Shown piece by piece: positions 16,473 to 51,961 of a stretch of DNA of 64,000 nucleotides. This DNA comes from a virus. Taxonomy: Duplodnaviria > Caudoviricetes. Location: the IMG/VR virus record IMGVR_UViG_3300032170_000128, positions 3,072 through 67,071 of that record. One strand, 5' to 3'. Position numbers and translations under genes: made by a program. A model generated the notes under the pieces. The model ran no database searches. It worked only from the letters and a program-made list of their open reading frames with translations, and was not told the DNA's origin. Each line of letters begins with the position of its first letter. The stretch's first letter is position 1.

Positions 16473-17741
16473 TTATCTGACCTTGAGGTTCTTGATGAAT
16501 ACGCATGCGTTCAGGTTCTCAATCGCGATGTCGGAGCGTATGGAGTAGAAGAAGTAGGTCGACTCCTCAGCCGCCTCCCTCTGGGTCTCCATCTTGATGT
16601 CCCTCTGCAATCCGATAATCAGGTTGTTCTTGTGTGTTAAAATGCAGTCGCTTCCATCCAGGGTGACTTCCTGGACCGGCTCGGCATCTGTTCCCTCATG
16701 CAGCCACTCGAGATTATCTACCAGAGTCAGAGATACTCCGGCCTCAATCGAAGCGATCTCCCCGATCTCGGATTTGTACTCGAGGGCATCTTTGTGGATC
16801 CAGACATAGTCGCCGACTGTGAAATTGTCTGTAGCGGCTACATTGAGAACCTTCTGACCCGCGGCTGAGTCCGCATCGACTGTCGTATCGCCCCCGCCTG
16901 TTACGAAGACCGGAAGGTCAGTCGGGAAAAGCGGTGCTGAAACGATGGGAACTTTTCCATACTGGATAGCCCCATCACCCAGAATGGCCTTGTCGCCGAG
17001 CACAGTCGCACGTGCGGCAAGGGCATCGATGTAGTCCTGCACGAGCTGGTCGTTCATGAAAAACCTGAAGTTCGCGAGTCCGAGCCTCTTGTACTTTGAG
17101 GGAAGGCTCTTCAGCGCCTTTGAGAACTTGAACTCCCAATCAAAGGGTGCATCCCCGGTATGCTCTGCTATGTATCCGTTGGTGTTCGTGAAGTCGGTGC
17201 TGAGACGGGCATCCAGTTTGGTGGCCGAACCGGTCACCTTATTGGTCTGGGTAAGGATCCTGTGTCTCCAGCCGTTCCAGACATCAAGCATGGTCTTGGG
17301 TTCGTCCTCACCGGCAACCATAGTGGAAAGGAAGTAGGCGAGTGCCAGTTCGTTTCCGATCTGGGCTCCAATCATCTTCAGGAGATGGTCAATGAAGGCC
17401 TCTCCCTCGATGTTGTCCTCGAGGTCGTCGTCATGGACTACTGCCGCCCCCCTTGCCTTCTTCGAGTTGAGGACAATCAGGTCGTGTACGATACTGGTCT
17501 TGTACTTGGCCGCGCCGAAGGCCGCCTCTGGCCACAGCATATCGCCCACGCTCAGGCCGATGGCCCGGAGGTTCCTTGAGCTCTTGGCCATCTTCACCAT
17601 TCTGGCGTGGTCCTTGAGCACGGACTGGTCGATGATGTAGTCCAGGAATCGGTCAGCCTCCTCCGGCGTGAAAGCAATATCGGTAGGGAACATCCCTTTC
17701 TTGATTGCTGCCTTGGACAGCAGGTTCTTTGCTGTTTTCAT
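16473..17741 (-). CDS. Major capsid protein (HK97 fold) with inserted beta-rich domain
   Basis: FTPEEADRFLDYIIDQS, GNELALAYF, NLIIGLQRDIKMETQRE...YFFYSIRSDIAIEN; follows scaffold. Confidence 0.9.
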   Translation of the reverse strand: MKTAKNLLSKAAIKKGMFPTDIAFTPEEADRFLDYIIDQSVLKDHARMVKMAKSSRNLRAIGLSVGDMLWPEAAFGAAKYKTSIVHDLIVLNSKKARGAAVVHDDDLEDNIEGEAFIDHLLKMIGAQIGNELALAYFLSTMVAGEDEPKTMLDVWNGWRHRILTQTNKVTGSATKLDARLSTDFTNTNGYIAEHTGDAPFDWEFKFSKALKSLPSKYKRLGLANFRFFMNDQLVQDYIDALAARATVLGDKAILGDGAIQYGKVPIVSAPLFPTDLPVFVTGGGDTTVDADSAAGQKVLNVAATDNFTVGDYVWIHKDALEYKSEIGEIASIEAGVSLTLVDNLEWLHEGTDAEPVQEVTLDGSDCILTHKNNLIIGLQRDIKMETQREAAEESTYFFYSIRSDIAIENLNACVFIKNLKVR

Positions 17742-18722
17742 TTATTTTCCTCCTTCTTCTGGAAAGAACGAAGGCCACTTGGAACTTTTCTCCGTCTCGT
17801 CCTCATCCTGGCCCTTGAGGCTCTTCTTGGTCCCTTTCTTCTCCTCCAGCTGTTTGACTCTTTTCTTCAGACCCTCCATTTCCTTCTCGACTTCCTCCTC
17901 CTCTTTTTCTTTTTCCTCTTCCTCCTCTTCCTCGTCCTCTTCGTCTTCTACCTTCTCTTTCTTTGTCTTCACCTTTTTCTTTTTCTCTTCCTCCGCCTCT
18001 GCCTTTTTCTCGAAGAGCTTGTCCATCTTTTCCGAGAGACTGTCCATCTTCTCCTCTATGAGGATAATCTCAGCCGATTTCTGGGCATCTGTTTTGATGA
18101 GGGACTCGAGAGCAATTATCGCCTTCTCCAGCGTCTTGTATTTCTCCACTGCGTTCTTGATCAGTTCCCTTGTGGCTTTCGATAGCTTCGCTCCGGCCTT
18201 CTCCACATCCTCTTCTTCCCCCTCTTTCTCTTCCTTCTCTTTCTTTGCGGGGTATCCGTAGCCGTAAGCGGCGTATTTGGCGAGTGTGTTGATGCACTCC
18301 TTGATCTCATCGGGGAAGTCTGCTTTGAACTTGCTCAGAGTGGCTACCACCGCCTTGAGTGCTTTGGCCGCATCGGGCGGGATCACCTTCTCCGCCTTCT
18401 CGAGCTTCTCCATTTCCTCGTCGGTCAGTTCGTCCTCTCCGATGAAATCCTTTATCATTTCTGACAATTTTTTCTTCATGGTCTTTTCTCCTTTTCTCTT
18501 GGAAATTATTTTGACGGCAGAATCTTCAAGAGACTCTCCGCATCCAGGACACTCCTCGCTAGCACTTTTAAAAAAGTCTACGAGGGCTTCCTCATGCCCG
18601 CACTCGCAGACGAGATAGTTTCCATCGCCTGCGGCTTTCGTGAAGAGGAACTTCCTCTTCGTGGCGGGCACATCGACAAGAGATATTTCCTCAGGCTCAA
18701 TCTCTTCCAATCTGTTGGGCAT
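17742..18722 (-). CDS. Scaffolding protein
   Basis: N-terminal EISLVDVPA motif, small CxC...CxxC knuckle, then Glu/Lys-rich coiled coil; directly upstream of capsid. Confidence 0.8.
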   Translation of the reverse strand: MPNRLEEIEPEEISLVDVPATKRKFLFTKAAGDGNYLVCECGHEEALVDFFKSASEECPGCGESLEDSAVKIISKRKGEKTMKKKLSEMIKDFIGEDELTDEEMEKLEKAEKVIPPDAAKALKAVVATLSKFKADFPDEIKECINTLAKYAAYGYGYPAKKEKEEKEGEEEDVEKAGAKLSKATRELIKNAVEKYKTLEKAIIALESLIKTDAQKSAEIILIEEKMDSLSEKMDKLFEKKAEAEEEKKKKVKTKKEKVEDEEDEEEEEEEKEKEEEEVEKEMEGLKKRVKQLEEKKGTKKSLKGQDEDETEKSSKWPSFFPEEGGK

Positions 18723-18792: not shown

Positions 18793-18844
18793 AAAAAAAA
18801 GCGATGCCAAGGAACTAACTATCGTAGCTATCTCGGCATCGCTT
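18793..18844 (-). terminator. Intrinsic terminator-like hairpin in leader of scaffold/capsid genes
   Basis: Minus strand AAGCGATGCCGAG...CTTGGCATCGCTT stem running into a T tract. Confidence 0.6.
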
Positions 18845-18914
18845 CAGAGCATGAGCAAATGCGACTGGCGCTTTCTCATCTAAGCAAGCGATCCAGAACC
18901 TACTCTCAGTTTAT

Positions 18915-18947: not shown

Positions 18948-21900
18948 TTAAATTTTCTCCACCTTTCGCCGATGAGCCAGACCGGCCATGGAGAACCCCG
19001 TTACCCTCCCTTCTTTGATGTCCTTCCATATGCCGGCATCCAGGACTCGGATTATCAATACCCATGACCCTTTCTTCACCTTCTGCTTGTCCACCTCAAA
19101 GTTTGCCGGGACTATGTAGTTCTCCAGGATGTTGATCTTCTGCGTTATCTGCTCGCCCTTGTGCTGGAGCTTGAATTTTTTGGAGTGTTCCATGTAGTAG
19201 TAACAGGCGTCCCTTATTTCTTTCTCCGTCGCATAGTCCCCCTGGACATCCTCCTTCATCGGCTCGTAGACGATGCCGCCCACTATATGCTCCTCCTCCG
19301 ACACCTTGAAGATGGGGACCTGTATCTCCTCTCTTTCCAGAAGGTCCCTTTTTTTGAACTTCACTTCCTTTATCTTTCCGGCCAAACCGTCCCACCATTC
19401 CTCCCAGCCACTCTGACCATAAATCACTTTTCCAGCCACCACGACCCGGGGCCTTCCAGCCGCTCCTGTATCGCACAGCGAATGGAGTCCTTCCATTCCG
19501 TCGAGCTTTTCGCTCATGGCTTCCGCCTCATTGTCCTCTCTGAGGTCTCTCATCCTGAACACAACGAAGGCAACCCTCTCCTTGCTTTTTCCTTCATCCG
19601 TTGATCTTATTTCTATTCTCTCTATGCTGTTGAGTTGCTCCAGCCATCCGTCTTTTATATGCTTGTCGACTTCCAACCCTTTCCAGCTCTTTTTAGGCGA
19701 GTCTGTTCTTCCGGCGAGAGGTTCTTCCGGCAGTTTTCCATAAACGGCTTCGTATGCGAATGTCGGGCTGTTGAGCTTCTGTCTTTGTTTTTCAGCCTCC
19801 TCTTCCTTGAGCTTGGATATCATCCAGACCCGTTCGCCTTTCTTCCCGGCCTCGGTCACCGGCACATAAGCCATGAGATATGTTCCTTCCGGAATGAGTT
19901 TGCTGCCTTTGAACACTAGCTTTTTGGCATGCTTGTCCTGCGGCTCTACGGCCTCGAACGTGAAGCTGTCCAGCAGGAGCATCGCCCCGTGCAGGTTCGC
20001 CGTGGCCCCGGCTTCTCCCGGCGGGAATATCTCCATCCTGTTCTTGCCGGCGTCCATCCATTCCACAGGCCCCCGTATGGTCTCCGCCTCCGGCTCTTCC
20101 TTGCGCGGCACCTTCCATCCGAACCGAAGCTTCCCTCCCTGCTCCAGCTTCTTCAGCTTGTCCAAGCCCGAGAGATTGCCTACCATTATCTCGCCACCTT
20201 CGAAGTAGTCATCGCCCTTCCTCACCATCCGCAGGTCTATGTGGCAGCCCTGCTCGCCGACTGCACCCTTGAGGAGGAGCTTCAGCCTCAGGGGGTTGTG
20301 CTTGGATCTCACGGCCTCGGCCGATGCCTTCTTCAGCGCCTCCACCTTTTCTTCCTCTATGCCCATGATATGAAGTTGCAGGACCGCCCTTCCGGCGTCT
20401 CCGACCACATAGTCAATTCCCCCCTCTTTGATCTTTGCGAATTTTGCCTTTAATTCATCTCTTATATTGGGATTGGGATTATCCCCAAATTTCTTACCTG
20501 CTTCTCCATTTTTAATTTCTTTTACATAATCTATATCGCTGAAATTTCTCCTATCATGCTCTTCATTTATCCACTCCTTAAAATGCTTCTCACAAAACCA
20601 AGCATGTGCTATCCCATTTGCCCATATAATTTCATAATCTGGGGGGTCAGAACACCTCATGCATTGGGTCCTTTTATGCCTTGCCTTCTGCAGGATGTTC
20701 GCCCGCTCGGCTATGTCCATCGCCTGCTTCGCAAAATAAGGCTCTTTCCTGTCTTTGTCTATGTCCAATACCCTGGCGCCCAGCCACTGGAGCTTCTTCT
20801 CCTGAGGGATGATCTCTTCGACGCCCATGGTCAGAATCTCTCCGGGTTCTGCCTTCATTTTCGTGTTATAGCATTTGCCCAGGTTGATGTATTCTTTGCC
20901 CCTGAATTCTGTCAGGTTCTCGAATCCGCTGTCGCCCGGCAGCAGCCCGCAGGTGTAGTTGTAGTTACCGCCCTTGACCTCGTGGCGTTCCAGCACTATG
21001 ACTTTGATCTCGGCCTCCCGCTTTATCTTGGCCCAGGTCTCGCAACTTCCGTCGGTGTCCCACTTGCCGTCAAGCGTCTTTATCAATATGCCCTCGCTCT
21101 GCGGAAACTCCGCCAGCTTCCTGAACTGCTGCTCAAGACCTTTCCTATCCTTCACCACATTGTACGAGGTAAGGCCAAAATGGGGGTCGCTTTTGAGGTA
21201 TTTGCTGAAGAATACTTCAAGGCTTTTTCTCCTCTCCGATAGGGGCTTCTCGTGCAGGTCTTCCTTCCAGTAGGGGAGATCGAACATCGTGGCCTTGATA
21301 ACATCGCCTTCCTCTAACTCGGGTTTGTCGGCCATGAGAGTCATAAGCCGGATTCTGGGCAGTGCCTTGCCGTCCCGCTCTATTCCCATACCGCAGTCGA
21401 TTATGAAATCGTCCGGTATCTTCTTCAAGGCCTCAGCCAAAGGAGCTAGTTGCTTTGTCCTATCCTTGTTTCCTTCGGTCTTGAGCCTCACCTTGTCGCC
21501 TGCCTTCTCCATGATGAAGCGAAAGGCATTGAGCTTCTCTTCCACATCAAGCGGGAATTTGTCCTTCGCCCAGTTCCAGACCTCCTCCACGGAGAAAGCC
21601 TCCGTCAGCCCGGCCATCGTCGGCTTTGGGGGAATAAACTTTCCGAAAGGTGTCAGGGCAGCTTTCTTTAAATCCTCTATATTAAGTACTGCGATCGCGG
21701 AGTTCGATTCCTCGATCTTTCTTATCTTCCACTCATCGCCGAAGCATTTCTTGAAATCCTTGAGTTCCTTGAACTCCTGCTTGTGCGTCGGGTCCATCCT
21801 CTCTCCCAGTGGACTCAGGATTATGATTCGCTTCTTTGCTATCCGACAAGCATCCTTGAGCAGCTTCTCCGGGGACTCCAGATGTTCCAGCGCATGCACG

Positions 21901-24900
21901 CTTATCACATTGTCGAAGGAACTGTCTTCGAATGGAAGCTCATCTTTCTCAAGATCAGCCTTCTTAGTCTCAAGGTCTCTTTCCTTGCAGTATCCCAGGG
22001 CGATATCGCTGTTGTCCACGCCGGCTACTTTCCTGCCCGATCGCTCCAGCAACTTCAGAAGCCTGCCTGTCCCGCAACCGAGGTCCAATACGCTTCCCTC
22101 AGCCAGGCTGTTTATCACCTCTAGGTTGTCCCTCATAAGCATTTCGTCCCAGTCATCAAGGCCCTCGAAATACTCTCTTTCTCCTTTTGTTAAGTAAATT
22201 CCTGTTTTCTTCAAAGGGAAATTGGAGATGAGAAGCTCGGCTCTAAATTCCTGATTCGGGATGCTTCGCCAATTCTGAGGACTCTTCGTTCTAACTACAT
22301 TGAATTCTTTAAAAAATATCCTATTCTCCCTGTTATCGTTGAGCGATAAAATGAATTTCCCCTTTATTTTTCTTAGCTGAGCCAATAAATCTTTTTTTTC
22401 AACCCCATGTTTTTCAGCCTCTGTGACAGCTTTAGTTCCAGGATAGGGCGGATCAAGATAGAAAAAACTATCTTGAGAGTTAAACCTCTCGATTATTTTC
22501 CTGTAATCTTTATTAAATAATTGCACATTTCCAAGTCTCTGTTTAATATCAGGCAACCGCTTATACAAAGTATCTTTATAATCATTTTTCCTTCTGTCGT
22601 CCCTTGCAAATGTTTCTTGCATGCCTGCATAACTCCATACTTTAGTCAACAAAAATTTATGGAATCTTTCAACATCGTCCTTGGGGGCCAGAGCCTTTAA
22701 TCTCTCAAAGTTAAGATTGTTGTAGTTCCAATTCAGATTTCCTAATTCCTTCATACCTTTATCTTCTAATTTTTTTAAAAAACTATAAGCGAACATAATC
22801 TCAGAATTTATATCATTTATCACTTCAACTTCGCTCGGCTCTTTGGCAAACAGCACAGCTCCGCCGCCTACGAAGGGCTCCACATAAGTCTTATGTTCTG
22901 GGATGTAACTTACTATGGTCTTGGCCAGATATCTCTTACCGCCCGGTGAACCGAAGGCCGACCTGGTGCCTTTCTCGATTTCCTCGTCTGTTTCTCCACT
23001 GACCCCATCTGTGCTTTCTTCTTTTGCTAGGTAAATGTCTGTTTTCTTTAGGGGGAAATTGGAGATAAGAAGCTCGGTCCGTGTCAAAGTGGGTTTAAAT
23101 TCATCTATCAGTTTGCCTGTTTTAACTTTCTTTAATTCATAACTCACAAATAGCTTTCTATTTTTTAAGTTGTCAGGCAAAGATAAAATAAATTTCCCTT
23201 TTAGAGAGTCTACAAATTGTTTTAGTTCATTTATATCGATTTGCAAATCTTCAAAATTTGCTGTCTCTGGATATGGCGGGTCTAAATAGAAAAAGGCATC
23301 TTTTGAATCAAATTCTTTCAGGGCTTTATAGTCCTTATTTAAAATCCTGACTTTAGAAAACCTTTCCTTGATTTGTTCTAATCTATTAACTCCGTCCCAG
23401 CTCTGATTTAATCTAAGCGGATTTGGCTTTTTGCTTTTGCTCGAAAATGACCCCCACCTCAGCATAATAAACTTATGGAATTTATCTATGTTATTAGCTG
23501 GTGTGACTTCTTTTAATTTCAAAAATTTAAGATTAGTTAATTTCCAGTCTTTTTTTCTCAATTCAGATAAGTCATCTTCGGTGACACCCTTGATAAATTT
23601 GTATGCAGAGGTTATCCCTGGGTCGAGGTCGTTTATTATCTCGTTCTCGCTCGGCTCTTTGGCGAACAGGACCGCCCCTCCGCCCACAAAAGGTTCTATG
23701 TAAGTCTTGTGCTCGGGAATAAATCCCACTATGGTTTTTGCTAAGTATCTCTTCCCTCCAGGAGAACCGAAAGCCGGCCTGATGCCTTTCTCGATCTCCT
23801 CGTCTGCGCTTTCTTCCTTCGCAAGATAAATGTCTGTTTTCTTTAAGGGAAAATTAGAGATGAGAAGCTCGGTCCGGCTATGCTGCCAGGAGCCGCCCAC
23901 GTCTATCTGCTGGGAGGTCCTGACCTTTTTTATTTCGAAATCTTTGAACAGCTCCCTGTTTTTTGAATTGTCATTCAGACTCAGGATGAATTTGCCTTTG
24001 AGCTCGCAACAGAATTTATGGAGTTCTATCATATTGATTTCGCCGCCCATCGCTCCTGTTTCAGTTTCCGGATAAGGGGGATCGAGATAGTAGAATGAAA
24101 AAAACGAGTCCCTTGAATCAAAAGTTTTCAATTCCTTATAATCTTTATTGAAAATTTGAACGTTTTTAAGCCTTTCTTTTATTATCGGGAGCCTTGTTAA
24201 AAATGTCTCTGCCAAATCTGTCCCCTCCCGGTAATTGTCGTAGTTTCTTCCCAGCTTCCCATAACTAGCCGTCCTTACATAGATGAATTTTCTAAACCTT
24301 TCTCTGGGGTTTGAAGGCCTATGACTTTTAAGTTTATCAAACAAACTTTTCTTAATGACCCAGTCCATGGCTTTTAAGGATTTATAGTCATCTTCCGTCA
24401 TGTTTTTAATGAACTGATAAGCGAATGTTATCTCTGAATCTTTATCATTGATTATTTCTCTCTCGCTTGGCTCTTTAGCGAATAAGACAGCGCCTCCTCC
24501 TACGAAGGGTTCAATATAAGTTTTGTGTTCTGGAATAAAACCCACTATGGTTTTGGCTAAATATTTCTTGCCGCCAGATGATCCAAAAGCCGGACGCACC
24601 CCTTTTTCTAAATCTTCGGGCTTGTGACAGATACCGCCGGCCTCTTCCTCATCACCGCATATCAGGCAGCGCGGATGGCCGTTGGGATGCGTGTATTTTG
24701 CCGGCTTGAACTTGTGCGGCCACTCGGCTTTTTTCCTGTTCTCCCTTATCCTCTCCGTCTCCTCGTCACACTCTTTGCGCTGGGCTGGCATGAGGCCCTT
24801 GCTCACATCAACACTCTCTTTGACCCTGATTATCTCCATCTTGTCCTTTGCCCTGAGCACAAGGTCGAAGAGAGGTATGTATGAGCTATGGGGACCCGAG

Positions 24901-25361
24901 GGATGGTAGATGAATTCCATGTCCTTGTGCAGGACCTTTGCGAGAGTCCTTCCCAGCTTGAGTTCGAGCGTCTCGTCCCTCTGGCCTTCGGGGGTTCTTA
25001 TGACGATGTCGACATCGCCGGCTTCCTTGGGGTTTCTGACATAGGACCCGGCTATGGAACAGTAGTCGGGGATCACCACCACATCCCCCAGGCTGGCGGC
25101 GGAGAACTTGAAGATGGCGGAGTCGAAGACGAACTTGTCCAACGAACTCACCATCCTGGGCGAGATCAACCTCTTGGCCATCTCCTTGAGCAGAAGCCCA
25201 TAGCGGTTCAGGAAGCTCTTTTTGCTCAAGTCTCCCAGACATTCCTTGCCCGTCTTGTAGAAGTGCTTGTCCCAAGTCTGGATGAATCGGGTCCTCAGTA
25301 TTTCCAATTGTGAGTTGGAAGCCCTGGAAAGCCCGCTTTCTGTCACCTGTTCTATGTACAA
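18948..25361 (-). CDS. 2137-aa multidomain head polyprotein: nucleotidyltransferase + 3x Dam-like N6-adenine MTase + class I SAM MTase + ATP-dependent ligase-like + LigD phosphoesterase-like + unknown + XkdF-like prohead protease
   Basis: GSYVR...GDVDIV; three AFGS.GGK...EPFVGGGAV...YLDPPY units; VLDLGCGTG; EEKLNAFR/FD/EGILIK/WAKIK plus OB fold; LQLH...HIDLR; C-terminal VGGIVYEP...DVQGDY...HKG...GSW...GFSMAG. Confidence 0.85.
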   Translation of the reverse strand: MYIEQVTESGLSRASNSQLEILRTRFIQTWDKHFYKTGKECLGDLSKKSFLNRYGLLLKEMAKRLISPRMVSSLDKFVFDSAIFKFSAASLGDVVVIPDYCSIAGSYVRNPKEAGDVDIVIRTPEGQRDETLELKLGRTLAKVLHKDMEFIYHPSGPHSSYIPLFDLVLRAKDKMEIIRVKESVDVSKGLMPAQRKECDEETERIRENRKKAEWPHKFKPAKYTHPNGHPRCLICGDEEEAGGICHKPEDLEKGVRPAFGSSGGKKYLAKTIVGFIPEHKTYIEPFVGGGAVLFAKEPSEREIINDKDSEITFAYQFIKNMTEDDYKSLKAMDWVIKKSLFDKLKSHRPSNPRERFRKFIYVRTASYGKLGRNYDNYREGTDLAETFLTRLPIIKERLKNVQIFNKDYKELKTFDSRDSFFSFYYLDPPYPETETGAMGGEINMIELHKFCCELKGKFILSLNDNSKNRELFKDFEIKKVRTSQQIDVGGSWQHSRTELLISNFPLKKTDIYLAKEESADEEIEKGIRPAFGSPGGKRYLAKTIVGFIPEHKTYIEPFVGGGAVLFAKEPSENEIINDLDPGITSAYKFIKGVTEDDLSELRKKDWKLTNLKFLKLKEVTPANNIDKFHKFIMLRWGSFSSKSKKPNPLRLNQSWDGVNRLEQIKERFSKVRILNKDYKALKEFDSKDAFFYLDPPYPETANFEDLQIDINELKQFVDSLKGKFILSLPDNLKNRKLFVSYELKKVKTGKLIDEFKPTLTRTELLISNFPLKKTDIYLAKEESTDGVSGETDEEIEKGTRSAFGSPGGKRYLAKTIVSYIPEHKTYVEPFVGGGAVLFAKEPSEVEVINDINSEIMFAYSFLKKLEDKGMKELGNLNWNYNNLNFERLKALAPKDDVERFHKFLLTKVWSYAGMQETFARDDRRKNDYKDTLYKRLPDIKQRLGNVQLFNKDYRKIIERFNSQDSFFYLDPPYPGTKAVTEAEKHGVEKKDLLAQLRKIKGKFILSLNDNRENRIFFKEFNVVRTKSPQNWRSIPNQEFRAELLISNFPLKKTGIYLTKGEREYFEGLDDWDEMLMRDNLEVINSLAEGSVLDLGCGTGRLLKLLERSGRKVAGVDNSDIALGYCKERDLETKKADLEKDELPFEDSSFDNVISVHALEHLESPEKLLKDACRIAKKRIIILSPLGERMDPTHKQEFKELKDFKKCFGDEWKIRKIEESNSAIAVLNIEDLKKAALTPFGKFIPPKPTMAGLTEAFSVEEVWNWAKDKFPLDVEEKLNAFRFIMEKAGDKVRLKTEGNKDRTKQLAPLAEALKKIPDDFIIDCGMGIERDGKALPRIRLMTLMADKPELEEGDVIKATMFDLPYWKEDLHEKPLSERRKSLEVFFSKYLKSDPHFGLTSYNVVKDRKGLEQQFRKLAEFPQSEGILIKTLDGKWDTDGSCETWAKIKREAEIKVIVLERHEVKGGNYNYTCGLLPGDSGFENLTEFRGKEYINLGKCYNTKMKAEPGEILTMGVEEIIPQEKKLQWLGARVLDIDKDRKEPYFAKQAMDIAERANILQKARHKRTQCMRCSDPPDYEIIWANGIAHAWFCEKHFKEWINEEHDRRNFSDIDYVKEIKNGEAGKKFGDNPNPNIRDELKAKFAKIKEGGIDYVVGDAGRAVLQLHIMGIEEEKVEALKKASAEAVRSKHNPLRLKLLLKGAVGEQGCHIDLRMVRKGDDYFEGGEIMVGNLSGLDKLKKLEQGGKLRFGWKVPRKEEPEAETIRGPVEWMDAGKNRMEIFPPGEAGATANLHGAMLLLDSFTFEAVEPQDKHAKKLVFKGSKLIPEGTYLMAYVPVTEAGKKGERVWMISKLKEEEAEKQRQKLNSPTFAYEAVYGKLPEEPLAGRTDSPKKSWKGLEVDKHIKDGWLEQLNSIERIEIRSTDEGKSKERVAFVVFRMRDLREDNEAEAMSEKLDGMEGLHSLCDTGAAGRPRVVVAGKVIYGQSGWEEWWDGLAGKIKEVKFKKRDLLEREEIQVPIFKVSEEEHIVGGIVYEPMKEDVQGDYATEKEIRDACYYYMEHSKKFKLQHKGEQITQKINILENYIVPANFEVDKQKVKKGSWVLIIRVLDAGIWKDIKEGRVTGFSMAGLAHRRKVEKI
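22190..24610 (-). repeat. Three tandem roughly 800-bp Dam-like MTase units with conserved ends
   Basis: Near-identical unit ends at about 22191-22240, 23025-23080, 23820-23875; shared junction TTTCTCGAT(C/T)TCCTCGTCTG at about 22971 and 23787; divergent AT-rich middles. Confidence 0.9.
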
Positions 25362-25461
25362 ACGGCATTCACCCCCTTTTCTCCCCCAAGAAACGCGCTG
25401 AGAGCGCCTGTGTGCGGCGAACTCGAGCGTCCTAGGGCAGTTGTATTGACTTCTTCGCCTT

Positions 25462-25647
25462 TCATCTTTTTCGCTCGAAAACTATGTCGTTCTTCTGTTC
25501 GGGCAGCGGTTTTGAGTGGTCGTTCTTGCCCGATAAGATTATGTTCGGAATGCCCTCGGGGAATGCCTTGCATTCCGGCCACCAGTCCGCATCCATGCGT
25601 TTATGTCTGCACTTGAGGCATACATTGATATGGAATATCATCGTCAT
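25462..25647 (-). CDS. Small Cys/His protein downstream of MuF (candidate immunity/partner), 61 aa
   Basis: CLKCRH...CKAFPEGIP..ILSGKNDHSKPLPEQKNDIVFE; ATGA overlap with MuF stop puts the start at 25647. Confidence 0.7.
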   Translation of the reverse strand: MTMIFHINVCLKCRHKRMDADWWPECKAFPEGIPNIILSGKNDHSKPLPEQKNDIVFERKR

Positions 25648-27158
25648 CCTCCGGTCAAAATCAGGTTCGCCTTCTTCTGGGCTCCTTTGGGCAAAGACGA
25701 CATTCTGAAGCCTTTCTTCGTAACCCGGCTCACCCATTCGGCCCATGCCTCCCCCCAGTTCATTTCCGCATAACGGGACGGCAGCCAGCCTGTTTTTGTA
25801 TATATTAAATTTATATTTAATCCCACATACTCCCCGTGCGTTAGGACATTCTGCAAAGCATGGCCGAGCTCATGTCTTATTGTCCCTCCTAAAGTAGCAT
25901 CGACATAATATTTGCCTTCTGTGCGGTTTATGATCGCCGATATTTTGGGGTCGACTATGATCTTAGTGCCCTTTTGCATTCTGTCCAGTTTATCATAGAT
26001 GCCCGTGATGGTCCCCGCCGCAGGGTTGTCCGGGCGCCCCATGTTGACATGATAAAATTTTATCTCGCCTTTTTTCAACTTGTTGAAATACCTGGGCTTT
26101 AGCTTCAGTTCCAAAATGGATATCTGTCTGTTGAATTCATTCGCCAATTCCAGGTTCATCTTTCTGAATGCGACTCCCATTTCCTTTATCAGATTCAAGT
26201 GAGATGGGTCCGCACCTTTAAACAAATCCGCCTCTTTCCCATAATAAAAGCCTTTGCTGTTCGCCCAGCTCTCGGCTTCCTTTAAGCTGTTTGCCGGTTT
26301 CCATTTCTCCGGCGCCTTCTCCGCCGGCGTCATTCCGCACCGGCAATCCGGATGCAGAAGATCAGGGAAGTCCGCCCGACGATACACCCTCCCGTCCAGG
26401 GTGGCGCAATCCACGCATGCGTCCGGCGCCGCGAGGTACTGGATGCGCTCCACCCCGAGCTTCTCGTAGCGCATGAGCGTGCCTTCGTGGACCGCCCTTG
26501 CCGACTCCGTCCTGGCGATCGTCTCCGCCCTCAGCTCGTGCATCCTGTTCACATACTTGTCGAACATGGCCTCGCGCCTGGCCGGGCTGAGCCTCCGGTA
26601 CTTCGGCATCGTCTGGAGCTTCGTGTAGTAGTTCGATGCCGCCGCGGTCTGCGCCTTGTTGAGTCCCGCAAGCGGCTTCAGCTCCTCTGTAAGCTGGAAC
26701 ACCGTCTTGCCCTGCGCTATAGCATCAGATACATGGGTCCTGATGGCATCGACGGTCTCGTCCAAGATGTCCGTCACCATGTCCCCGGCATTCGCCGCCG
26801 CCCACTCGACCGCCTCCACATTCAGGACATCGAACTGCTTCGCAAAACCGCCCGCCTTCGACGCCTCTATGATGAGGATGTCGAGGTAGGCCCGTTTCAG
26901 CATCCGCTCGCCCTCGGCCCTGAGCATCTCCCAGTCCGCGAGCTTCTTCACGGCGAGAACCTTCCTTGGAGTCTTGAGTCCGCGTCGCACCTCGCGGTTT
27001 ATGAGTTTCAGCCATCGCCCGACCGCATGCCGGAGTTCGACCTCGGCTTCCCTCCCGGCTACCTCGCGCCGCTTCCTGACCTCCTCCCAGTAGCCTATCT
27101 GTCCCAGGAAGTGGATGATGACAGCGTGAAGCCTTGCCAGCCTCTCATTTTTCCGCAT
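25644..27158 (-). CDS. MuF-like minor head protein with C-terminal zincin metallopeptidase extension
   Basis: RAETIARTE...C..C..LDG...HPDCRC MuF motif; extension has IRHELGH (HExxH) and PSRYA...EAWAE. Confidence 0.85.
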   Translation of the reverse strand: MRKNERLARLHAVIIHFLGQIGYWEEVRKRREVAGREAEVELRHAVGRWLKLINREVRRGLKTPRKVLAVKKLADWEMLRAEGERMLKRAYLDILIIEASKAGGFAKQFDVLNVEAVEWAAANAGDMVTDILDETVDAIRTHVSDAIAQGKTVFQLTEELKPLAGLNKAQTAAASNYYTKLQTMPKYRRLSPARREAMFDKYVNRMHELRAETIARTESARAVHEGTLMRYEKLGVERIQYLAAPDACVDCATLDGRVYRRADFPDLLHPDCRCGMTPAEKAPEKWKPANSLKEAESWANSKGFYYGKEADLFKGADPSHLNLIKEMGVAFRKMNLELANEFNRQISILELKLKPRYFNKLKKGEIKFYHVNMGRPDNPAAGTITGIYDKLDRMQKGTKIIVDPKISAIINRTEGKYYVDATLGGTIRHELGHALQNVLTHGEYVGLNINLIYTKTGWLPSRYAEMNWGEAWAEWVSRVTKKGFRMSSLPKGAQKKANLILTGG

Positions 27159-28656
27159 CCAGAATCCTCCTCATCTCCATCCGCAACTCTTCGAGTGCGT
27201 CGGCGAACCGCCCTCTCTTCTCCAGCTCCTCCTCTCCTGCGGGTTTGAACTGCGATCCCACAAAGCGCTGGTCGCCCTCCGGGTAAGGCTCGCCCATGTC
27301 GAAATGCTTTATCACCTGGTTGGGGGTGGCCGCCCCCATGGCGAAGAGTTTCTCGAACCGCTTCACCTCGGCATCCAGGTCGCGCGTGTCCGACCCCTTG
27401 AGCTTGAAGTCGAAGAATGCCTTGAACTCCCCTTCCCTGTCCTTCTTGTAGAATGTGGGAAGTATCCGCCCGTTGAATAGGAACTCCAGGTCGTACTGGA
27501 GCGGGTAGACCATGGAGTAGATGTAATTTATGTTGGACTCCTTGGCCGTGCTTCCTCCCAGCGACCCTTCCTCGGCTATCCCTATCTTGTAAGGCGGCAT
27601 CGAGTAGGCCACCAGCACCTCGTCCCGCTGCATCTTCACGTAGACCTTGAAAGACCCCTCGTCGGTCTTCTTCGTCTCCAGCGGAATCCACTCCAGCTTT
27701 CCGCCCTCCTCGGGAAGCTGGATCGCCATGGTCTTGTGCGCGTTCTCCGAGCCTTTTATCTCCGTGTCGATGAACTCCATTATTTTCTTGTCGGAGCCCT
27801 CCTCCCATTCGCCCGTGAGGATGACCAGGGCCGAGGGGACCCCGTAATTCTCGAAGAAAGCTAGGTTGTAGTCACGTATCCCGATGAGGGTGATCACCGC
27901 TCCCACCGAACCCAGGATGTTGGGAGTCCCGTAGTAGTCGGAGCGCGAGTAGAAGTTCCTGTAGAAGATCATCTCGTTCGCCCGGTCATCTTCAGCTATT
28001 CCATTCTTTTCCGCCTCCTCCCCCGTGTCCTTGTGGACATCCATCTCGTACCCGAACCGCTTGAACCAGCGGTACTTCTTCTGGCCCCTGACCCGTCGGA
28101 TCTGGCAGTACTTGTTCCCGGACTCGTGGACGCGGACTGTATGTCCGGGGACATAATACATCTCGGCGACCTGGTCGATGTTGTTCCTCGCCAGCTCGAG
28201 CGACCACCAACCGATAGAACCCCAATCCGTTATGAGGCTCTTGAGGATCTGCACCAGCGAGTCCTCCTCGTTCGGCTTCAGGAGCAGCCTCTCCATCTTG
28301 GCTTTCAGCTCCTGGGCCTCCTTGTCCGTCTTGATGTCCACGCCTTCTTTGGGGACCAGCATATGTCCGAGCCCGCCCGCATCCTGGGCGACCTGATCCA
28401 CGCAACGCATGAAATACCCGTTCGACTCGTACAGGTCCAAGAAAGTGGAAGGATTGAAAGGCGGTGTCATCAGCCCCTTCTCCTTGAAGTACTGCTTCTC
28501 CTCCTTTATGGCTTTAGAGCTCTTCTTTATTTCATGGCGTTCGAGCTTCTTGAAGGGGAGCAGCTCGCCTCTCGTGGTGTAGACGAAAACCTTTCCCTTC
28601 CTCGGAGTTGCGGGAGCTTCCTTTGTCCTTTCTTTCTCCAGCGCTTTCGACGACAT
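27145..28656 (-). CDS. Portal protein (PBSX-like)
   Basis: YYGTPNILGS...YNLAFFENYGVPSALV...RDEVLVAYSMPPYKIGI...MVYPLQ pattern. Confidence 0.9.
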   Translation of the reverse strand: MSSKALEKERTKEAPATPRKGKVFVYTTRGELLPFKKLERHEIKKSSKAIKEEKQYFKEKGLMTPPFNPSTFLDLYESNGYFMRCVDQVAQDAGGLGHMLVPKEGVDIKTDKEAQELKAKMERLLLKPNEEDSLVQILKSLITDWGSIGWWSLELARNNIDQVAEMYYVPGHTVRVHESGNKYCQIRRVRGQKKYRWFKRFGYEMDVHKDTGEEAEKNGIAEDDRANEMIFYRNFYSRSDYYGTPNILGSVGAVITLIGIRDYNLAFFENYGVPSALVILTGEWEEGSDKKIMEFIDTEIKGSENAHKTMAIQLPEEGGKLEWIPLETKKTDEGSFKVYVKMQRDEVLVAYSMPPYKIGIAEEGSLGGSTAKESNINYIYSMVYPLQYDLEFLFNGRILPTFYKKDREGEFKAFFDFKLKGSDTRDLDAEVKRFEKLFAMGAATPNQVIKHFDMGEPYPEGDQRFVGSQFKPAGEEELEKRGRFADALEELRMEMRRILDAEK

Positions 28657-29888: not shown

Positions 29889-30368
29889 TCAGCCTGCCCT
29901 CGCAACCTTTGAATTCTGGCATCTCTTTTTTTTAATGGTGGTCGGAAGTCGCTTGGCATGGTTTATCCTGTCTCTCTTAGGCAAACATACCAGCCTTCCA
30001 TTCGCACAGGCGACCACAACCTCCTTCTCCTGGTCAACGAGCAGGGCGAAGTTGGGGGGCAGGGCCTTCTTGGCGGCCATGCACAGTCCGAAGGCCAGGG
30101 TCACTTCTTCTCTTTGTTCTTGTTTAAGGTCAAGGTGCTTCTTCAGTTCTTCCGGGGATAGAGGGATTTCATTGGCATTTACGGGTGAAAGTGTTGTATT
30201 AAATACAGGAAAACCTTTCATTCTCAGGGTATTCTTCTTGTTATTGGGGGAATGCACTTTATGCCTATGTATTACCGTATGTATTCTTCTTATTTCTCTA
30301 TGGGGGTGTAAGAGGAGTAGGAGAGTGGCGGCGGTTCTTTTCTGCGTGTCCCCGGTGCTTGTTCTCAT
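29889..30368 (-). CDS. Hypothetical protein (about 159 aa; start revised)
   Basis: ATGA overlap with MTase stop at 30365-30368; 5' part low-complexity so start uncertain. Confidence 0.45.
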   Translation of the reverse strand: MRTSTGDTQKRTAATLLLLLHPHREIRRIHTVIHRHKVHSPNNKKNTLRMKGFPVFNTTLSPVNANEIPLSPEELKKHLDLKQEQREEVTLAFGLCMAAKKALPPNFALLVDQEKEVVVACANGRLVCLPKRDRINHAKRLPTTIKKKRCQNSKVARAG

Positions 30369-32227
30369 TGTAGCTCCAGTTGCTCGGGTTGTCCGGGCTG
30401 TCCACGCCAGTGGGCTATGCGTCCTCTGGCTATCCCCAGGTATTCTTCTTCCCTCTCTATACCTATGCACTTCCGCCCTGTGTTGTGTGCGGCGATGGCT
30501 GTCGTGCCGGAGCCGAGGAAGGGATCGAGGACTGTCTGCCCCTCACGGGTTACGAGCTTGATCAGCCACTCAAAGAGCTTAATGGGCTTTACGGTGGGGT
30601 GGTTGTTCTTATAGCTTGTTTCATGCTTAACTGTTTCATATCGATAATCATTGTGTTCACATCTTAACTGTTTGCCCGGAGCTTCTTTCATTGCTTTGCA
30701 TCCACAGATATTACAAACAATCAATTTCCTGTCTTTAAAAAGCCTGTCCTTGTTCTCCTCCATCCCCTCCAGCCCCGCATTCCTCTCCGACCTTGACGCT
30801 TTAGCACAATAATAAAAGCGGGAGGCACCTCCTGAGTCGCCGAATCTTATTCCATTATTTGGGCTTCCTTTATTGTCGTAAAATATACTTTGAGGATTTT
30901 CTTGTACGGCAGTCCCGACAGCCCTTTTACTGCCAGCAGAATGAACGCCCCTTTGCACGCTCTGCTCGTCCAATAGTCTCAATGCACATTCTTTGTGACA
31001 CAGCCATTCCTCTTGTCCGTAGTTGCATTGCTTGAAGAAGCGGGAGGCCCCACCTGAGTCGCCATAGCTTACCTGAACATCTCCAGCCTTGCCCAATCCT
31101 CCGTGTTCGACAAAAAATCCTTCTTTCCTTCGCACATTGCCTTTTCCGCTCTGCAGGTTTCCGCTCTGTTCATCCAGCATCCTCACCGCACAGTCGGGAT
31201 GGCATCGCCAGGATTCGACTATCTCGTAGCCATCGGAATCTCCTAATTTGCATGGAATCCTTTTATCGAATGGAGGATATGTAACCCCGTTTTTAATCTT
31301 CCTTATGGATTCTGATTGATTTGGGCGGGCATTTCCTTTCACCCTCTTCATCCCCACCTGCACACACTCAGGATGGTGTCCCAGGATTATGTTCGCAGGG
31401 AAGCGACCTGAAGCTGGAGTATGGGTTGACCCTCCTTTTCCTGTAAATGATTTTTCCCCACTTGGTCTGCCTGCTTCGTTATGATGGGGTTGACCATTGA
31501 TTCTTGTCTCCTCCACATTCACCGCCCCGACATTCCACTTCAGCACATTGTCCACATACGACCCCTCGGGAGGCTTGACCGCCCAGACTATCGGCTCGTA
31601 GGCAGGCTTGATTCCGCCGACCTTGAAGCCGTCCCAGTACTCGCCTTCGGGAGTGAGGGGTTGAGTGATAAATCCGTCTCCCACGCCTCCTTGCAATCCG
31701 TAATCTGCTAAGTTATTTTCTCGTTTCTTCCTGTCATTCGGATTCTTGGCAATCTTTTTCCTTCTTCTATTCACCTCTTTAGTGCTTATCCCCAAAATCT
31801 TTGCATCTACCAAAACAGAGACTTCCTGTGCCTTCGGGAATCCCGAACCATAAACCCACATCAGCGTATCCTTGATAATGAACCCCGTATCCTCAACAGC
31901 ACACATCAGCCTATGGAATGTTCTTGTTCCGCCCATCACCAGCATTGACCCGCCAGGCTTCAGCACTCGGTAGGCTTCGGCGAGCCATTGGGCGTGCCAG
32001 AGTTGGGCTTCGAGTCCAGCCCTGTATTGAGATAAATTCTTGCCAATAAATGGGTCTCCTTGTTTTTGAATGCCCAAATCAGTCAACTTGCCATTTCTCT
32101 TGTCCCATAACCGATCCCACTTCTTCCCCATGAACTCGAGTCCATACGGAGGATCCGTCACGATTGCGTCCACAGAGCAGTCCTTCAGGGGGAGCGTCTT
32201 TGTGCTGTCCGCCCTGATCATCACCAT
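30365..32227 (-). CDS. N6-adenine/N4-cytosine DNA methyltransferase, beta class (620 aa)
   Basis: TDPPYGL (motif IV) near N terminus, HPTVKP and DPFLGSGTT (motif I) near C terminus. Confidence 0.92.
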   Translation of the reverse strand: MVMIRADSTKTLPLKDCSVDAIVTDPPYGLEFMGKKWDRLWDKRNGKLTDLGIQKQGDPFIGKNLSQYRAGLEAQLWHAQWLAEAYRVLKPGGSMLVMGGTRTFHRLMCAVEDTGFIIKDTLMWVYGSGFPKAQEVSVLVDAKILGISTKEVNRRRKKIAKNPNDRKKRENNLADYGLQGGVGDGFITQPLTPEGEYWDGFKVGGIKPAYEPIVWAVKPPEGSYVDNVLKWNVGAVNVEETRINGQPHHNEAGRPSGEKSFTGKGGSTHTPASGRFPANIILGHHPECVQVGMKRVKGNARPNQSESIRKIKNGVTYPPFDKRIPCKLGDSDGYEIVESWRCHPDCAVRMLDEQSGNLQSGKGNVRRKEGFFVEHGGLGKAGDVQVSYGDSGGASRFFKQCNYGQEEWLCHKECALRLLDEQSVQRGVHSAGSKRAVGTAVQENPQSIFYDNKGSPNNGIRFGDSGGASRFYYCAKASRSERNAGLEGMEENKDRLFKDRKLIVCNICGCKAMKEAPGKQLRCEHNDYRYETVKHETSYKNNHPTVKPIKLFEWLIKLVTREGQTVLDPFLGSGTTAIAAHNTGRKCIGIEREEEYLGIARGRIAHWRGQPGQPEQLELQ

Positions 32228-33576
32228 CCGAATACCCGTCCTTTCCTTCTCTCCTTGACTTTAACATCGGCCATGACGATGGCATCGAGCCTGTCGGTCG
32301 ACATCTTCATCCTCTTCTTGAACTCCTCTTTGGACTCCACTTTCTGCAGCCCGTCGGCGCTGAGGGTGCGGTAGCGGATTGTCATCTCTTTCCCGAGCTT
32401 CGTGTCCTGCGGTATGTCATAATTGCCCAGGTTCTTTGCGAATGCGAACATGTCCTCCGCACGCCTGTTCTTGTAGCGCTCCGGACTCTTCGCCTTCTCG
32501 GATGCCTTGTATTTCATGAGCCTTCCCGTGTAGTTCCACTTCGACCGGAGGTCTTTGAGCTCCCTTTTCACCCTGTCGTAGACTCCCGCTCCGTATCCTA
32601 TGACATCGATCTTGACATCGGCTTTCTTGTGTATCCTCATAAGTTCTATCGAGTCGTCGGCGGTCTGCATCGTGTCCTGTCCCTTTATCACCTTCACGAT
32701 TCGGAACTTCATGCCCTGGACTGCTGGTTTCCCTTTCCCGTCCATGCCTGTAGCCTTCTGCTTCAGGGCGATGACCGTCTCGTCGTCCCCGTCCCAGGCC
32801 ACATCCACTCCTATGTCCGTCACTTCCTTTGATGCTTCCATCTCCCGCTCCATCGCAAGCTGGACTCCGGCGAAGGGGAAAAGCGCATTGCAGGCTGAGA
32901 TTATGTTCCAGTCCCCGTCTATCCACGCCTGGAAGAGGTCCGGGGGAAGCAGATTTCTCTGCTCATCCTCGTAGTCCTCGGGGTTATAGGGGTTGTCCTT
33001 TATGAAGGCGGGGACGAATTCGTGTTCGGGCAGGGGAGGGGAGGGATCAATCCACCGGTGTTTCACCCAGTTGTCGGTGGGGTTGGCCGTGCAGAGTCCT
33101 TTGAACACCACTCCTGGAATATTCAGGCTCAGACGCGTGCAGAGGAGGAGGAAGTGGCGCTCGGTCGTCTCTTCGCACTGGTCGATGGCGAACCAGCCCA
33201 GCTCCATCGACTTGATTCGCTCAATGGCTTTCTGCTCGTCACCCAGTCCGCCGTAAAAAATCATGCTGCCGTTCTTGAACCTCATCAGCCCCTCGGACTT
33301 GTTGTGGTATTCGAGGAGGCGGGGGTCGAGCCATTTCTCGAGCTCGATGAATGTGGAGCGTTTGAAGGAGTGGAGCTCGTGCCGGCACATGTACCCCCTG
33401 TTCCCGGGGATTCCACACGACAGGGCCACCGCGCAGTTGCAGAGCCAAGCGGTCTTTCCTCCCCGCATCGCTCCTCCGAAGAGTATATAGCGGGCGGGGG
33501 AGAGGGATGCCTTGAGCTGTCGCGGCGTCGGGTCCGCACTCTCCACCACATACTGCCTAGCGCTTGCCGTCCTCAT
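32221..33576 (-). CDS. terL: Terminase large subunit
   Basis: Walker A GGAMRGGKT, Walker B WFAIDQCEE, TANP coupling motif, RNase H-like DIGVDVAWDGDDETV...DRLDA. Confidence 0.93.
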   Translation of the reverse strand: MRTASARQYVVESADPTPRQLKASLSPARYILFGGAMRGGKTAWLCNCAVALSCGIPGNRGYMCRHELHSFKRSTFIELEKWLDPRLLEYHNKSEGLMRFKNGSMIFYGGLGDEQKAIERIKSMELGWFAIDQCEETTERHFLLLCTRLSLNIPGVVFKGLCTANPTDNWVKHRWIDPSPPLPEHEFVPAFIKDNPYNPEDYEDEQRNLLPPDLFQAWIDGDWNIISACNALFPFAGVQLAMEREMEASKEVTDIGVDVAWDGDDETVIALKQKATGMDGKGKPAVQGMKFRIVKVIKGQDTMQTADDSIELMRIHKKADVKIDVIGYGAGVYDRVKRELKDLRSKWNYTGRLMKYKASEKAKSPERYKNRRAEDMFAFAKNLGNYDIPQDTKLGKEMTIRYRTLSADGLQKVESKEEFKKRMKMSTDRLDAIVMADVKVKERRKGRVFGW

Positions 33577-51331: not shown

Positions 51332-51961
51332 TTATGAATTAAGATTTTTATTATTTCTTAATTCTCTATCTCTTTCCCCATAAAGCGTATAGTGAATAAA
51401 AGGCAGGGGAATTGTTTCTATTGGAATTGAAATATTAAGCGTTTGTGTGCTTTTATTTGAATGTTGAAGACCAAATAAATGATAATCAAAACTATTAAAA
51501 ATCCATGATTTAACTCTAACCCAATCTAAATCAATCACATCATAAAGCTTGGAGTTCATATATCTAAAAAAGATTAATCTATCGCCAGTGCATTTGTATA
51601 ACCAACCAATAGCTTGGTGGATTGTCTTTATCGCATTTTGTTCGTTATAAAATCTATCTCTAAAAAGATAAGAATAGTCTAGAATCTCCCGTTTTCTCTC
51701 ATCATATCCAGGCACTTGTAAGGCTGGTATTGTTTGAATTAATTCAACTAAAATATCTGCCCTATTAAGTATCTGCTTGTTATTTTCATCAAAGTACCTT
51801 CGTTTAATTTCTGCTTTTAGAAATAAATTTCTATGCCATATAAGCCAATCAAATTCTAAATTTTTATCTTCGAATGAATGAATTTTAATATTAGAACCAT
51901 AGGTTTTTTGTAAATATGTTATTTCTTCTGGTTTGGGTTTATTATTCATTTCCAAACACAT
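51332..51961 (-). CDS. PD-(D/E)xK nuclease-like protein
   Basis: FDWLI...KAEIKRR, ADILVE, GWLYKC; very AT-rich; coupled to MT-A70 gene. Confidence 0.5.
   Translation of the reverse strand: MCLEMNNKPKPEEITYLQKTYGSNIKIHSFEDKNLEFDWLIWHRNLFLKAEIKRRYFDENNKQILNRADILVELIQTIPALQVPGYDERKREILDYSYLFRDRFYNEQNAIKTIHQAIGWLYKCTGDRLIFFRYMNSKLYDVIDLDWVRVKSWIFNSFDYHLFGLQHSNKSTQTLNISIPIETIPLPFIHYTLYGERDRELRNNKNLNS

Follow-up and report, generated by a model that had tools for sequence, protein, structure and literature searches.

A head-maturation protease gene expanded into a 2,137-residue probable polyvalent protein in an uncultured temperate phage

The giant gene and the head operon around it

In a 64,000-nucleotide stretch of viral DNA (the window; positions 3,072 to 67,071 of the IMG/VR record IMGVR_UViG_3300032170_000128, Duplodnaviria, Caudoviricetes) we analysed a single giant open reading frame (ORF) that lies on the minus strand among the genes for head formation. 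The 67-kb IMG/VR provirus that contains the window is complete according to CheckV (100%); its genes include an integrase (62948-64000) and a large terminase (32221-33576). It is close to certain that the giant ORF is the prohead protease gene of this temperate tailed phage, enlarged by cargo: the encoded protein consists of a conserved N-terminal part (a helical and a nucleotidyltransferase (NTase)-like domain), a variable middle part, which here comprises about 1,800 residues of mostly nucleic-acid enzymes, and a C-terminal XkdF domain. The ORF and its parts are listed in order of translation, with the AlphaFold confidence score (predicted local distance difference test, pLDDT) and the GC content of third codon positions (GC3) where they characterise a part.

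18948-25361 (-): giant ORF, 2,137 residues, TTG start, no stop in 6.4 kb; head-maturation protease gene expanded into a polyvalent protein
25107-25361 (-): N-terminal helical domain (residues 1-85); AlphaFold2 pLDDT about 90; conserved in the family, including cargo-less members of ~310 residues
24792-25106 (-): probable minimal Pol-beta-type NTase (residues 86-190); G105-S106-x9-D116-V-D118 and D166; PF14792 borderline
24600-24791 (-): Zn-knuckle module (residues 191-254, HPNGHPRCLICG...CH); sequence pattern; position mobile in relatives
23802-24599 (-): Dam-type N6-adenine methylase 1 (residues 255-520); PF02086; DPPY and FxGxG intact; orthologue in P0006, 82%
22977-23801 (-): Dam-type methylase 2 (residues 521-795); PF02086; motifs intact; orthologue in L013, 72%
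22197-22976 (-): Dam-type methylase 3 (residues 796-1055); PF02086; motifs intact
21780-22196 (-): class I S-adenosylmethionine (SAM)-dependent methyltransferase (residues 1056-1194); PF08241 (Methyltransf_11), 66 bits; generic MetW/UbiG-like matches only
21012-21779 (-): ATP-dependent DNA ligase adenylation domain (residues 1195-1450); PF01068 (DNA_ligase_A_M), 47 bits
20730-21011 (-): presumed oligonucleotide-binding (OB) domain of the ligase (residues 1451-1544), with motif VI-like LGARVLDIDKDRKEPY; position and conservation
20460-20729 (-): Cys/His module (residues 1545-1634); GC3 0.42; missing from several relatives; weak Zn-finger-like fold matches
19809-20459 (-): LigD-type 3'-phosphoesterase (PE) domain (residues about 1635-1851); fold match and invariant residues
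19347-19808 (-): domain without assigned fold (residues 1852-2005); pLDDT below 50; seen in relatives L002, L003, L012-L015, L034 and L040
18951-19346 (-): XkdF / assemblin-fold serine protease (residues 2006-2137); PF14550; fold match and invariant residues

The C-terminal domain scores 91.4 bits against the XkdF profile (Pfam Peptidase_S78_2; cut-off 24). The AlphaFold model of this domain (pLDDT 70-90) superposes on the T4 protease gp21 (5jbl) with Z 8.4 and a root-mean-square deviation (rmsd) of 3.1 over 112 aligned residues, and on the protease of the herpesvirus varicella-zoster virus (1vzv) with Z 5.0. The candidate catalytic residues H2067 and S2124 are invariant among 29-52 relatives, and the spacing of 57 between them resembles that of gp21; D2038 is invariant as well. 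XkdF occurs in a single copy in the provirus, and a search of the provirus for proteases of the S78, ClpP and S49 types found none, so that the XkdF domain of the giant ORF is the sole recognisable prohead protease. An earlier note, made from the DNA letters and the translated reading frames, had placed the giant ORF in the prohead-protease slot and had set the presence of a C-terminal protease fold beforehand as one test of its reading; gene position, the lack of a second recognisable protease and the gp21-like fold all agree with it.

The single frame of 2,137 codons described there is likewise uninterrupted. The TTG start codon has a GGGGG Shine-Dalgarno sequence 8 nt upstream, and residue 1 aligns position-for-position with the N termini of homologues, which favours this start; the database gene call (P0002) begins at a GTG five codons further on. 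A 160-residue ORF with an ATG start (24886-25368, minus strand) overlaps the start of the giant ORF in a different frame and is probably spurious, since the homologues support the TTG. We regard it as barely credible that the gene is an assembly chimera, or a set of separate genes joined through sequencing errors. The region does fall into two or three ORFs in some relatives; however, unbroken fusions of 1,000-2,100 residues with the same domain order are found in independent assemblies of many samples, the start aligns with that of the homologues, and 6.4 kb pass without a stop. Repeat-driven misassembly is unlikely, given that no identical stretch shared by the Dam copies exceeds 17 bases.

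The neighbouring genes match families that bear out the proposed order portal-MuF-giant ORF-scaffold-capsid, and a tape measure gene is present further along the head operon.

27145-28656 (-): portal protein; PF04860
25644-27158 (-): MuF-like head protein, constant upstream neighbour (504 residues); PF04233 and synteny
17742-18722 (-): scaffold-like protein, constant downstream partner gene (326 residues); matches the scaffold half of phrog_3017 (protease-scaffold family); syntenic in 70+ loci
18636-18692 (-): conserved N-terminal motif of the scaffold, EEISLVDVPATKRKFLFTK (scaffold residues 11-29); S, A, F and K invariant in 40 loci
16473-17741 (-): major capsid-like protein; phrog_1623, E 2.5e-52; synteny

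The nucleic-acid enzymes of the middle part

PF02086 (Dam/D12) matches the giant ORF with 213.9 bits across three stretches, and EPFVGGGAV and DPPYP are present in all three copies, as expected from the earlier description of three Dam-like methyltransferases with intact DPPY. The copies are 48-61% identical at the protein level, being alike near FxGxG, DPPY and the C terminus and divergent in between; the divergent middle region of Dam-class methylases is the part that serves target recognition. The longest identical run that the three copies share is 17 bases and dS is saturated, which makes dN/dS between them not computable and indicates that the copies are old, neither an assembly artefact nor a recent triplication. 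Recent triplication in place is also ruled out by the level of identity and by Dam1 and Dam2 being closer to orthologues in other phages. Arrays of two, three and four Dam domains are carried by relatives. One of these (P0014, 1,635 residues) has four tandem Dam domains and no other Pfam domain on record, and another (P0020, 1,423 residues) has three.

The base composition of the gene is uneven, and the GC counts first given for it, 17/60 at 23101-23160 and 32/60 at 20161-20220, are exact. GC3 is 0.63-0.75 in the N-terminal domain, the SAM methylase, ligase, OB, PE and XkdF, and 0.40-0.45 in the three Dam domains, close to the value listed for the Cys/His module. The low GC3 of the Dam and Cys/His blocks marks them as later additions from a lower-GC source. 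The proposal that the gene grew by stepwise accretion is supported by this composition together with a graded series of relatives of 310-1,425 residues at the same position.

The provirus also contains four stand-alone DNA methylase genes, all on the minus strand (30365-32227, 51942-53036, 54447-56279 and 56260-57459): two are of the N6/N4 type, one is MT-A70 and one is a C5 methylase. Counting the three Dam domains, the 67-kb provirus encodes at least seven domains for DNA methylation, a load that fits restriction as the main pressure on the phage.

Downstream of the SAM methylase, in the minimal ATP-dependent ligase, the family profile matches human and archaeal DNA ligases, DNA ligase I among them, with E about 1e-17. 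Conservation extends to motifs IIIa (FD), IV (SEGxxxK) and V (KxK) and to the lysine of motif I, and the nearest NCBIfam ligase models are those of LigD (TIGR02776, 55 bits versus a cut-off of 373; TIGR02779, 51.6 versus 227.75). In the AlphaFold model of residues 1545-2137 the pLDDT is above 90 across residues 1656-1851, and this part matches the PE domain of 3p4h (Z 12.6, rmsd 2.1, 117/118 residues) and of 3n9b (Z 10.9); the top seven Foldseek matches are all LigD PE domains. Q1662, H1664, H1707, D1709 and R1711, corresponding to the Mn-binding His/Asp residues and the Arg, are invariant in the family, and a two-helix insert of ~40 residues stands between the histidines. NCBIfam sequence models do not detect the PE domain, which is recognised by fold search and motifs.

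The N-terminal helical domain also heads 60+ relatives, and a fold search with its model returned generic helical matches only (Z below 7). Behind it, G105-S106-x9-D116-V-D118 together with D166 corresponds to the Pol-beta signature hG[GS]-x9-13-Dh[DE]h plus a third carboxylate. PF14792 scores 26.6 bits with the piece alone and 23.2 with the whole protein (cut-off 25), and the region gave an Atlas lead of 0.91. The AlphaFold2 model is poor past residue 85, the NTase region included, and no PDB match was obtained for this region either by fold search with that poor model or with the N-domain family profile; single-sequence PDB searches with the N terminus and with residues 1540-2015 also returned nothing.

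Set against the domain calls of the earlier note, these results confirm the class I SAM methyltransferase through its PF08241 match, the ligase core through PF01068 and the LigD PE-like domain through its fold. The Pol-beta NTase stands as far as its catalytic motifs go, with a borderline profile and a fold without match; the OB fold, Zn knuckle and Cys/His module are putative calls from sequence patterns and conservation. Residues 1852-2005, which have neither a Pfam nor an Atlas match, stay the 'unknown domain' they were called.

NTase, PE and ligase resemble bacterial LigD in function, in that LigD also combines an ATP-dependent ligase with a 3'-phosphoesterase alike in fold and in its QxH...HxDxR residues. 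The trio is nevertheless not a LigD: the ligase scores far below the LigD cut-offs, its motif I has N instead of D, and the PE domain has the 40-residue helical insert. Pfam and NCBIfam searches with the whole protein found no match to an archaeo-eukaryotic primase (AEP)-type polymerase in the giant ORF, which has the Pol-beta-type NTase motif instead, and no Ku was found in the 67-kb provirus.

A methyltransferase beside a ligase also recalls Hen1-Pnkp, and LigD-type PE and LIG domains act on 3'-ribonucleotide ends. The SAM methyltransferase, ligase, PE and NTase might therefore form an RNA-repair core that heals, for example, tRNAs that host anticodon nucleases have cleaved, as Pnkp/Hen1 or T4 Pnkp/Rnl1 do, and relatives do carry 2H/LigT phosphoesterases and, in one case, an RNA ligase domain. 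We consider this quite improbable, since the matches of the ligase domain are to DNA ligases (PF01068 and the models of DNA ligase I and LigD) and not to RNA ligase families, no 5'-kinase domain was found, and the remaining cargo consists of DNA methylases. Hen1-type repair in particular was set aside: the Hen1 model gives 25 bits where its cut-off is 340, a score that dozens of unrelated methyltransferases match or exceed.

A family with two constant ends

More than 550 IMG/VR loci contain a relative of the giant ORF, and we checked synteny in 80 fetched loci. The order portal-MuF-[N-domain...XkdF]-scaffold-capsid is kept in all 80, confirmed in detail in L003 and L005, while the length of the gene ranges from ~310 residues (no cargo) to 1,425; the 2,137-residue gene is the largest member of this uncultured phage family. 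A core of SAM methylase, ligase, PE and XkdF is common to 38 clusters of 1,176-2,132 residues, to which a metallo-beta-lactamase fold, a 2H phosphoesterase, a C5 methylase or Hint is variably added. A full HMMER scan with the XkdF domain returned 4,804 representatives (E of 1e-3 or better). In 130 of the 150 nearest, XkdF closes the protein and is preceded by N-terminal extensions of 20 to 1,650 residues. Among the 52 of these proteins with at least 450 residues the ligase is the commonest recognisable cargo (11 proteins) and the majority of the cargo is unrecognised; most of what can be recognised belongs to ligase, methylase, metallo-beta-lactamase-fold, 2H phosphoesterase and InPase domains. 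Relatives repeatedly carry Dam arrays, ligase and phosphoesterase, in an order that varies by sub-lineage: some place the Dam arrays after PE, and the Zn module moves. Metagenome-assembled genomes with matching contigs bear the labels Desulfobacterales, Deltaproteobacteria, Aminicenantes and those of two archaeal groups. On XkdF genes of Lactococcus and Rhizobium phages, the label 'DNA methyltransferase' proved to mark ordinary proteins of 210-350 residues without cargo.

Relatives, the smallest included, begin with a counterpart of the N-terminal 185 residues, and the cargo is therefore inserted between two constant ends. This modifies the original proposal that the protease serves as a capsid-targeting tag: the protease is indeed constant at the C terminus, but it is not the only constant part, and the cargo has been placed between the two ends instead of in front of them. 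Capsid targeting may be the work of the N-terminal domain or of the scaffold. The catalytic motifs of the NTase are strictly kept in cargo-bearing loci and degenerate in eight cargo-less proteins (L047, L049, L059, L065, L066, L068, L074 and L082), which keep the NTase-like domain and have lost GS and DxD; the P163/D166 region is the only NTase part kept family-wide. Since the motifs are kept only alongside the ligase/PE cargo, NTase catalysis appears to be tied to it.

Ordinary XkdF and XkdF-scaffold proteases (phrog_3017; Lactococcus phage 28201 gp33) have the same protease domain in the same slot between MuF and capsid. In the XkdF-scaffold proteases XkdF is near the N terminus, with an SLVD..PA..FL motif before it and the scaffold after it, whereas in the giant ORF XkdF is the last domain and the motif stands at the start of a scaffold gene of its own. 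The consensus of the motif is R-K-L-K-D-I-x3-E-[VI]-S-L-V-D-x-P-A-x3-F-L-F-F-K. The ordinary fusions carry it in cis, 15-35 residues before XkdF (after XkdF in one protein), and it was found in none of 130 C-terminal-XkdF proteins. Judging from this distribution it may be a docking or first cleavage site that joins protease and scaffold; equally, it may be a scaffold feature unconnected with XkdF. A Zn-ribbon-like CxC...CxxC insert (LVCECGHEEALVDFFKSASEECPGCG) occupies scaffold residues 38-62 (window 18540-18610, minus strand), where related scaffolds have AKYCVCPECGHSEK.

One relative (L005, 7911-12670; L010 is alike) has three tightly spaced ORFs in place of one: an N-domain protein of 300 residues, an Asn-synthase/PP-loop ATPase-like protein of 239 residues and a SAM-methylase-to-XkdF protein of 1,049 residues. 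The arrangement points either to another type of cargo or to a fusion that has broken up.

Proposed delivery of the cargo with the phage DNA

Our overall reading is that the giant protein is a polyvalent protein of the phage type in the sense of Iyer et al. 2017, whose cargo is delivered in the virion; we consider this probable, with packaging, cleavage and delivery as the steps that we infer. In polyvalent proteins assemblin-like peptidases are always at the C termini and probably process the proteins during virion assembly (Iyer, Burroughs, Anand, de Souza, Aravind 2017; PMC5512222). The giant ORF shares with them the combination of many unrelated enzyme domains in one phage polypeptide (here at least eight recognisable domains), the location of the gene beside portal/MuF (here between MuF and scaffold) and the C-terminal position of the peptidase (XkdF at residues 2006-2137 of 2137); DNA methylases, 2H and InPase are cargo of polyvalent proteins and of the giant-protease family alike. 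The earlier note had left it in doubt whether such an architecture had been described: the class with a C-terminal assemblin-like peptidase has, whereas an ATP-dependent DNA ligase, a LigD phosphoesterase and a three-methylase array as cargo are not mentioned in that text. Pol-beta NTases are reported there in conjugative-element proteins only (PMC5512222), and here a probable one occurs in a phage protein. The inserted-cargo layout, the fixed protease-slot position in a large uncultured lineage and the series from 310 to 2,137 residues are also new relative to that text. A literature search for head-maturation proteases fused to a ligase or methylase found nothing relevant.

As the sole recognisable prohead protease of the provirus, the protein should have to enter the procapsid and take the attached cargo along. 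The whole 235-kDa chain would be co-assembled into the procapsid at low copy number, after which the protease would cut the linkers between domains. The freed enzymes, presumably too large for the capsid pores, would be retained with the DNA and enter the next host alongside it. There the methylases would blunt restriction, and NTase, phosphoesterase and ligase would trim and seal nicks or genome ends at entry, which is the most economical role for this trio. Self-release of the protease, methylation during packaging or on entry and the healing of breaks, all put forward in the earlier note, stand as proposals.

Precedent for such a route is found in T4, where the internal proteins and Alt are loaded into the prohead, cut by gp21 and injected with the DNA (PMC9026906, PMC9958956). 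The XkdF domain has the same fold as gp21; in T4, however, the cargo proteins are separate and bear a short N-terminal peptide for targeting, whereas the giant ORF holds its cargo covalently within the protease protein, and no sequence relation was found between the T4 proteins and this cargo. DarB of phage P1, likewise large and packaged in the head, has a methylase-like domain and shields incoming DNA from restriction. It differs from the giant protein in combining methylase and helicase, in needing other Dar proteins for packaging and in having no protease, ligase or phosphoesterase; the likeness claims no homology (the P1 virion is described in PMC9024508).

Several observations weigh against virion delivery. 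The gene is split in L005, L012, L014, L020 and L042, and in these relatives part of the cargo is therefore not covalently joined to the protease. Ligase motif I reads K1276-L-N-A-F-R (KLNGFR in the family) rather than KxDGxR, which makes ligase activity not certain. A passenger of 235 kDa takes up room in the capsid at the expense of DNA, and none of the cultured phages in the collection searched has such cargo. A hydrophobic-E-K/R motif that precedes Dam1-3 and XkdF (4/15 in linkers, p about 0.03, post hoc) amounts to a weak enrichment and a candidate lead to the cleavage sites.

As a rule, exemplified by HK97 and T4, prohead proteases and scaffolds are broken down and do not stay in the head. 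This counts for an explanation confined to the producer cell, in which the enzymes act late on progeny DNA at or near the procapsid, methylating it before packaging and closing the nicks of concatemers. Joining the enzymes to a late head gene would then provide timing, dosage and location, the procapsid content would be degraded or expelled when the head matures, and none would be delivered to the next host. The giant gene does lie within the late head operon, and four stand-alone methylases are already available for cytoplasmic methylation. The cargo that forms a separate ORF of the same operon in some relatives fits co-expression and co-packaging equally. Co-expression, however, has no need of fusion, and yet fusion is the rule over dozens of divergent loci, with the cargo placed between two conserved end domains. 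Ligase, phosphoesterase and NTase would also be more sensible at DNA entry, before phage gene expression. Together with the precedents of packaged, protease-processed enzymes, T4 Alt and internal proteins (PMC9026906, PMC9958956) and the P1 Dar proteins (PMC9024508), these points make an action restricted to the producer cell unlikely.

Within the reading of virion delivery, a more specific joint proposal can be put forward tentatively, as a possibility of which we are rather doubtful: the family would represent a natural plug-in system for capsid loading, in which the scaffold motif docks XkdF in trans and NTase, ligase and PE form a virion-delivered kit for the repair of DNA ends. Any enzyme placed between the N-terminal domain and XkdF would then ride into the procapsid. 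The trio would act in a LigD-like manner, with a Pol-beta-fold transferase standing in for the AEP polymerase, and its task would be to seal the entering genome or make it circular.

The site of insertion accepts anything from no residues to about 1,800. Should the cargo be packaged, phages would be able to turn one obligatory procapsid enzyme into a carrier of counter-defence and repair enzymes, a DNA ligase and a 3'-phosphoesterase would join the proteins delivered with phage DNA, the methylase arrays of differing specificity would find a simple explanation, and a natural template would be at hand for the loading of proteins into HK97-type capsids. With more than 550 loci and no cultured member, the family gives a defined goal to efforts at phage isolation from hosts of sediments and the subsurface.

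Three further features of the head operon lie outside the giant ORF. The MuF protein has a C-terminal extra region with an HELGH zincin motif (GGTIRHELGHALQNV), for which Pfam reports MuF alone; by its sequence the region resembles the MPTase peptidase that polyvalent proteins often contain. Most of the gap between the MuF gene and the giant ORF is occupied by a Cys-rich ORF of 61 residues (25462-25647, minus strand; CLKC...C), which overlaps the MuF stop codon (ATGA) and has no family match. In the 225-nt spacer between the stop of the giant ORF and the start of the scaffold gene, unlike most relatives, in which protease and scaffold genes abut or overlap, there is a hairpin (18793-18845, minus strand) with a 14-bp stem followed by U8 (free energy dG -28.5 kcal/mol, z -4.45). 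A consensus terminator scan had missed this long-loop hairpin, which was revealed by RNA folding and looks like an intrinsic terminator ahead of the most highly needed head genes.

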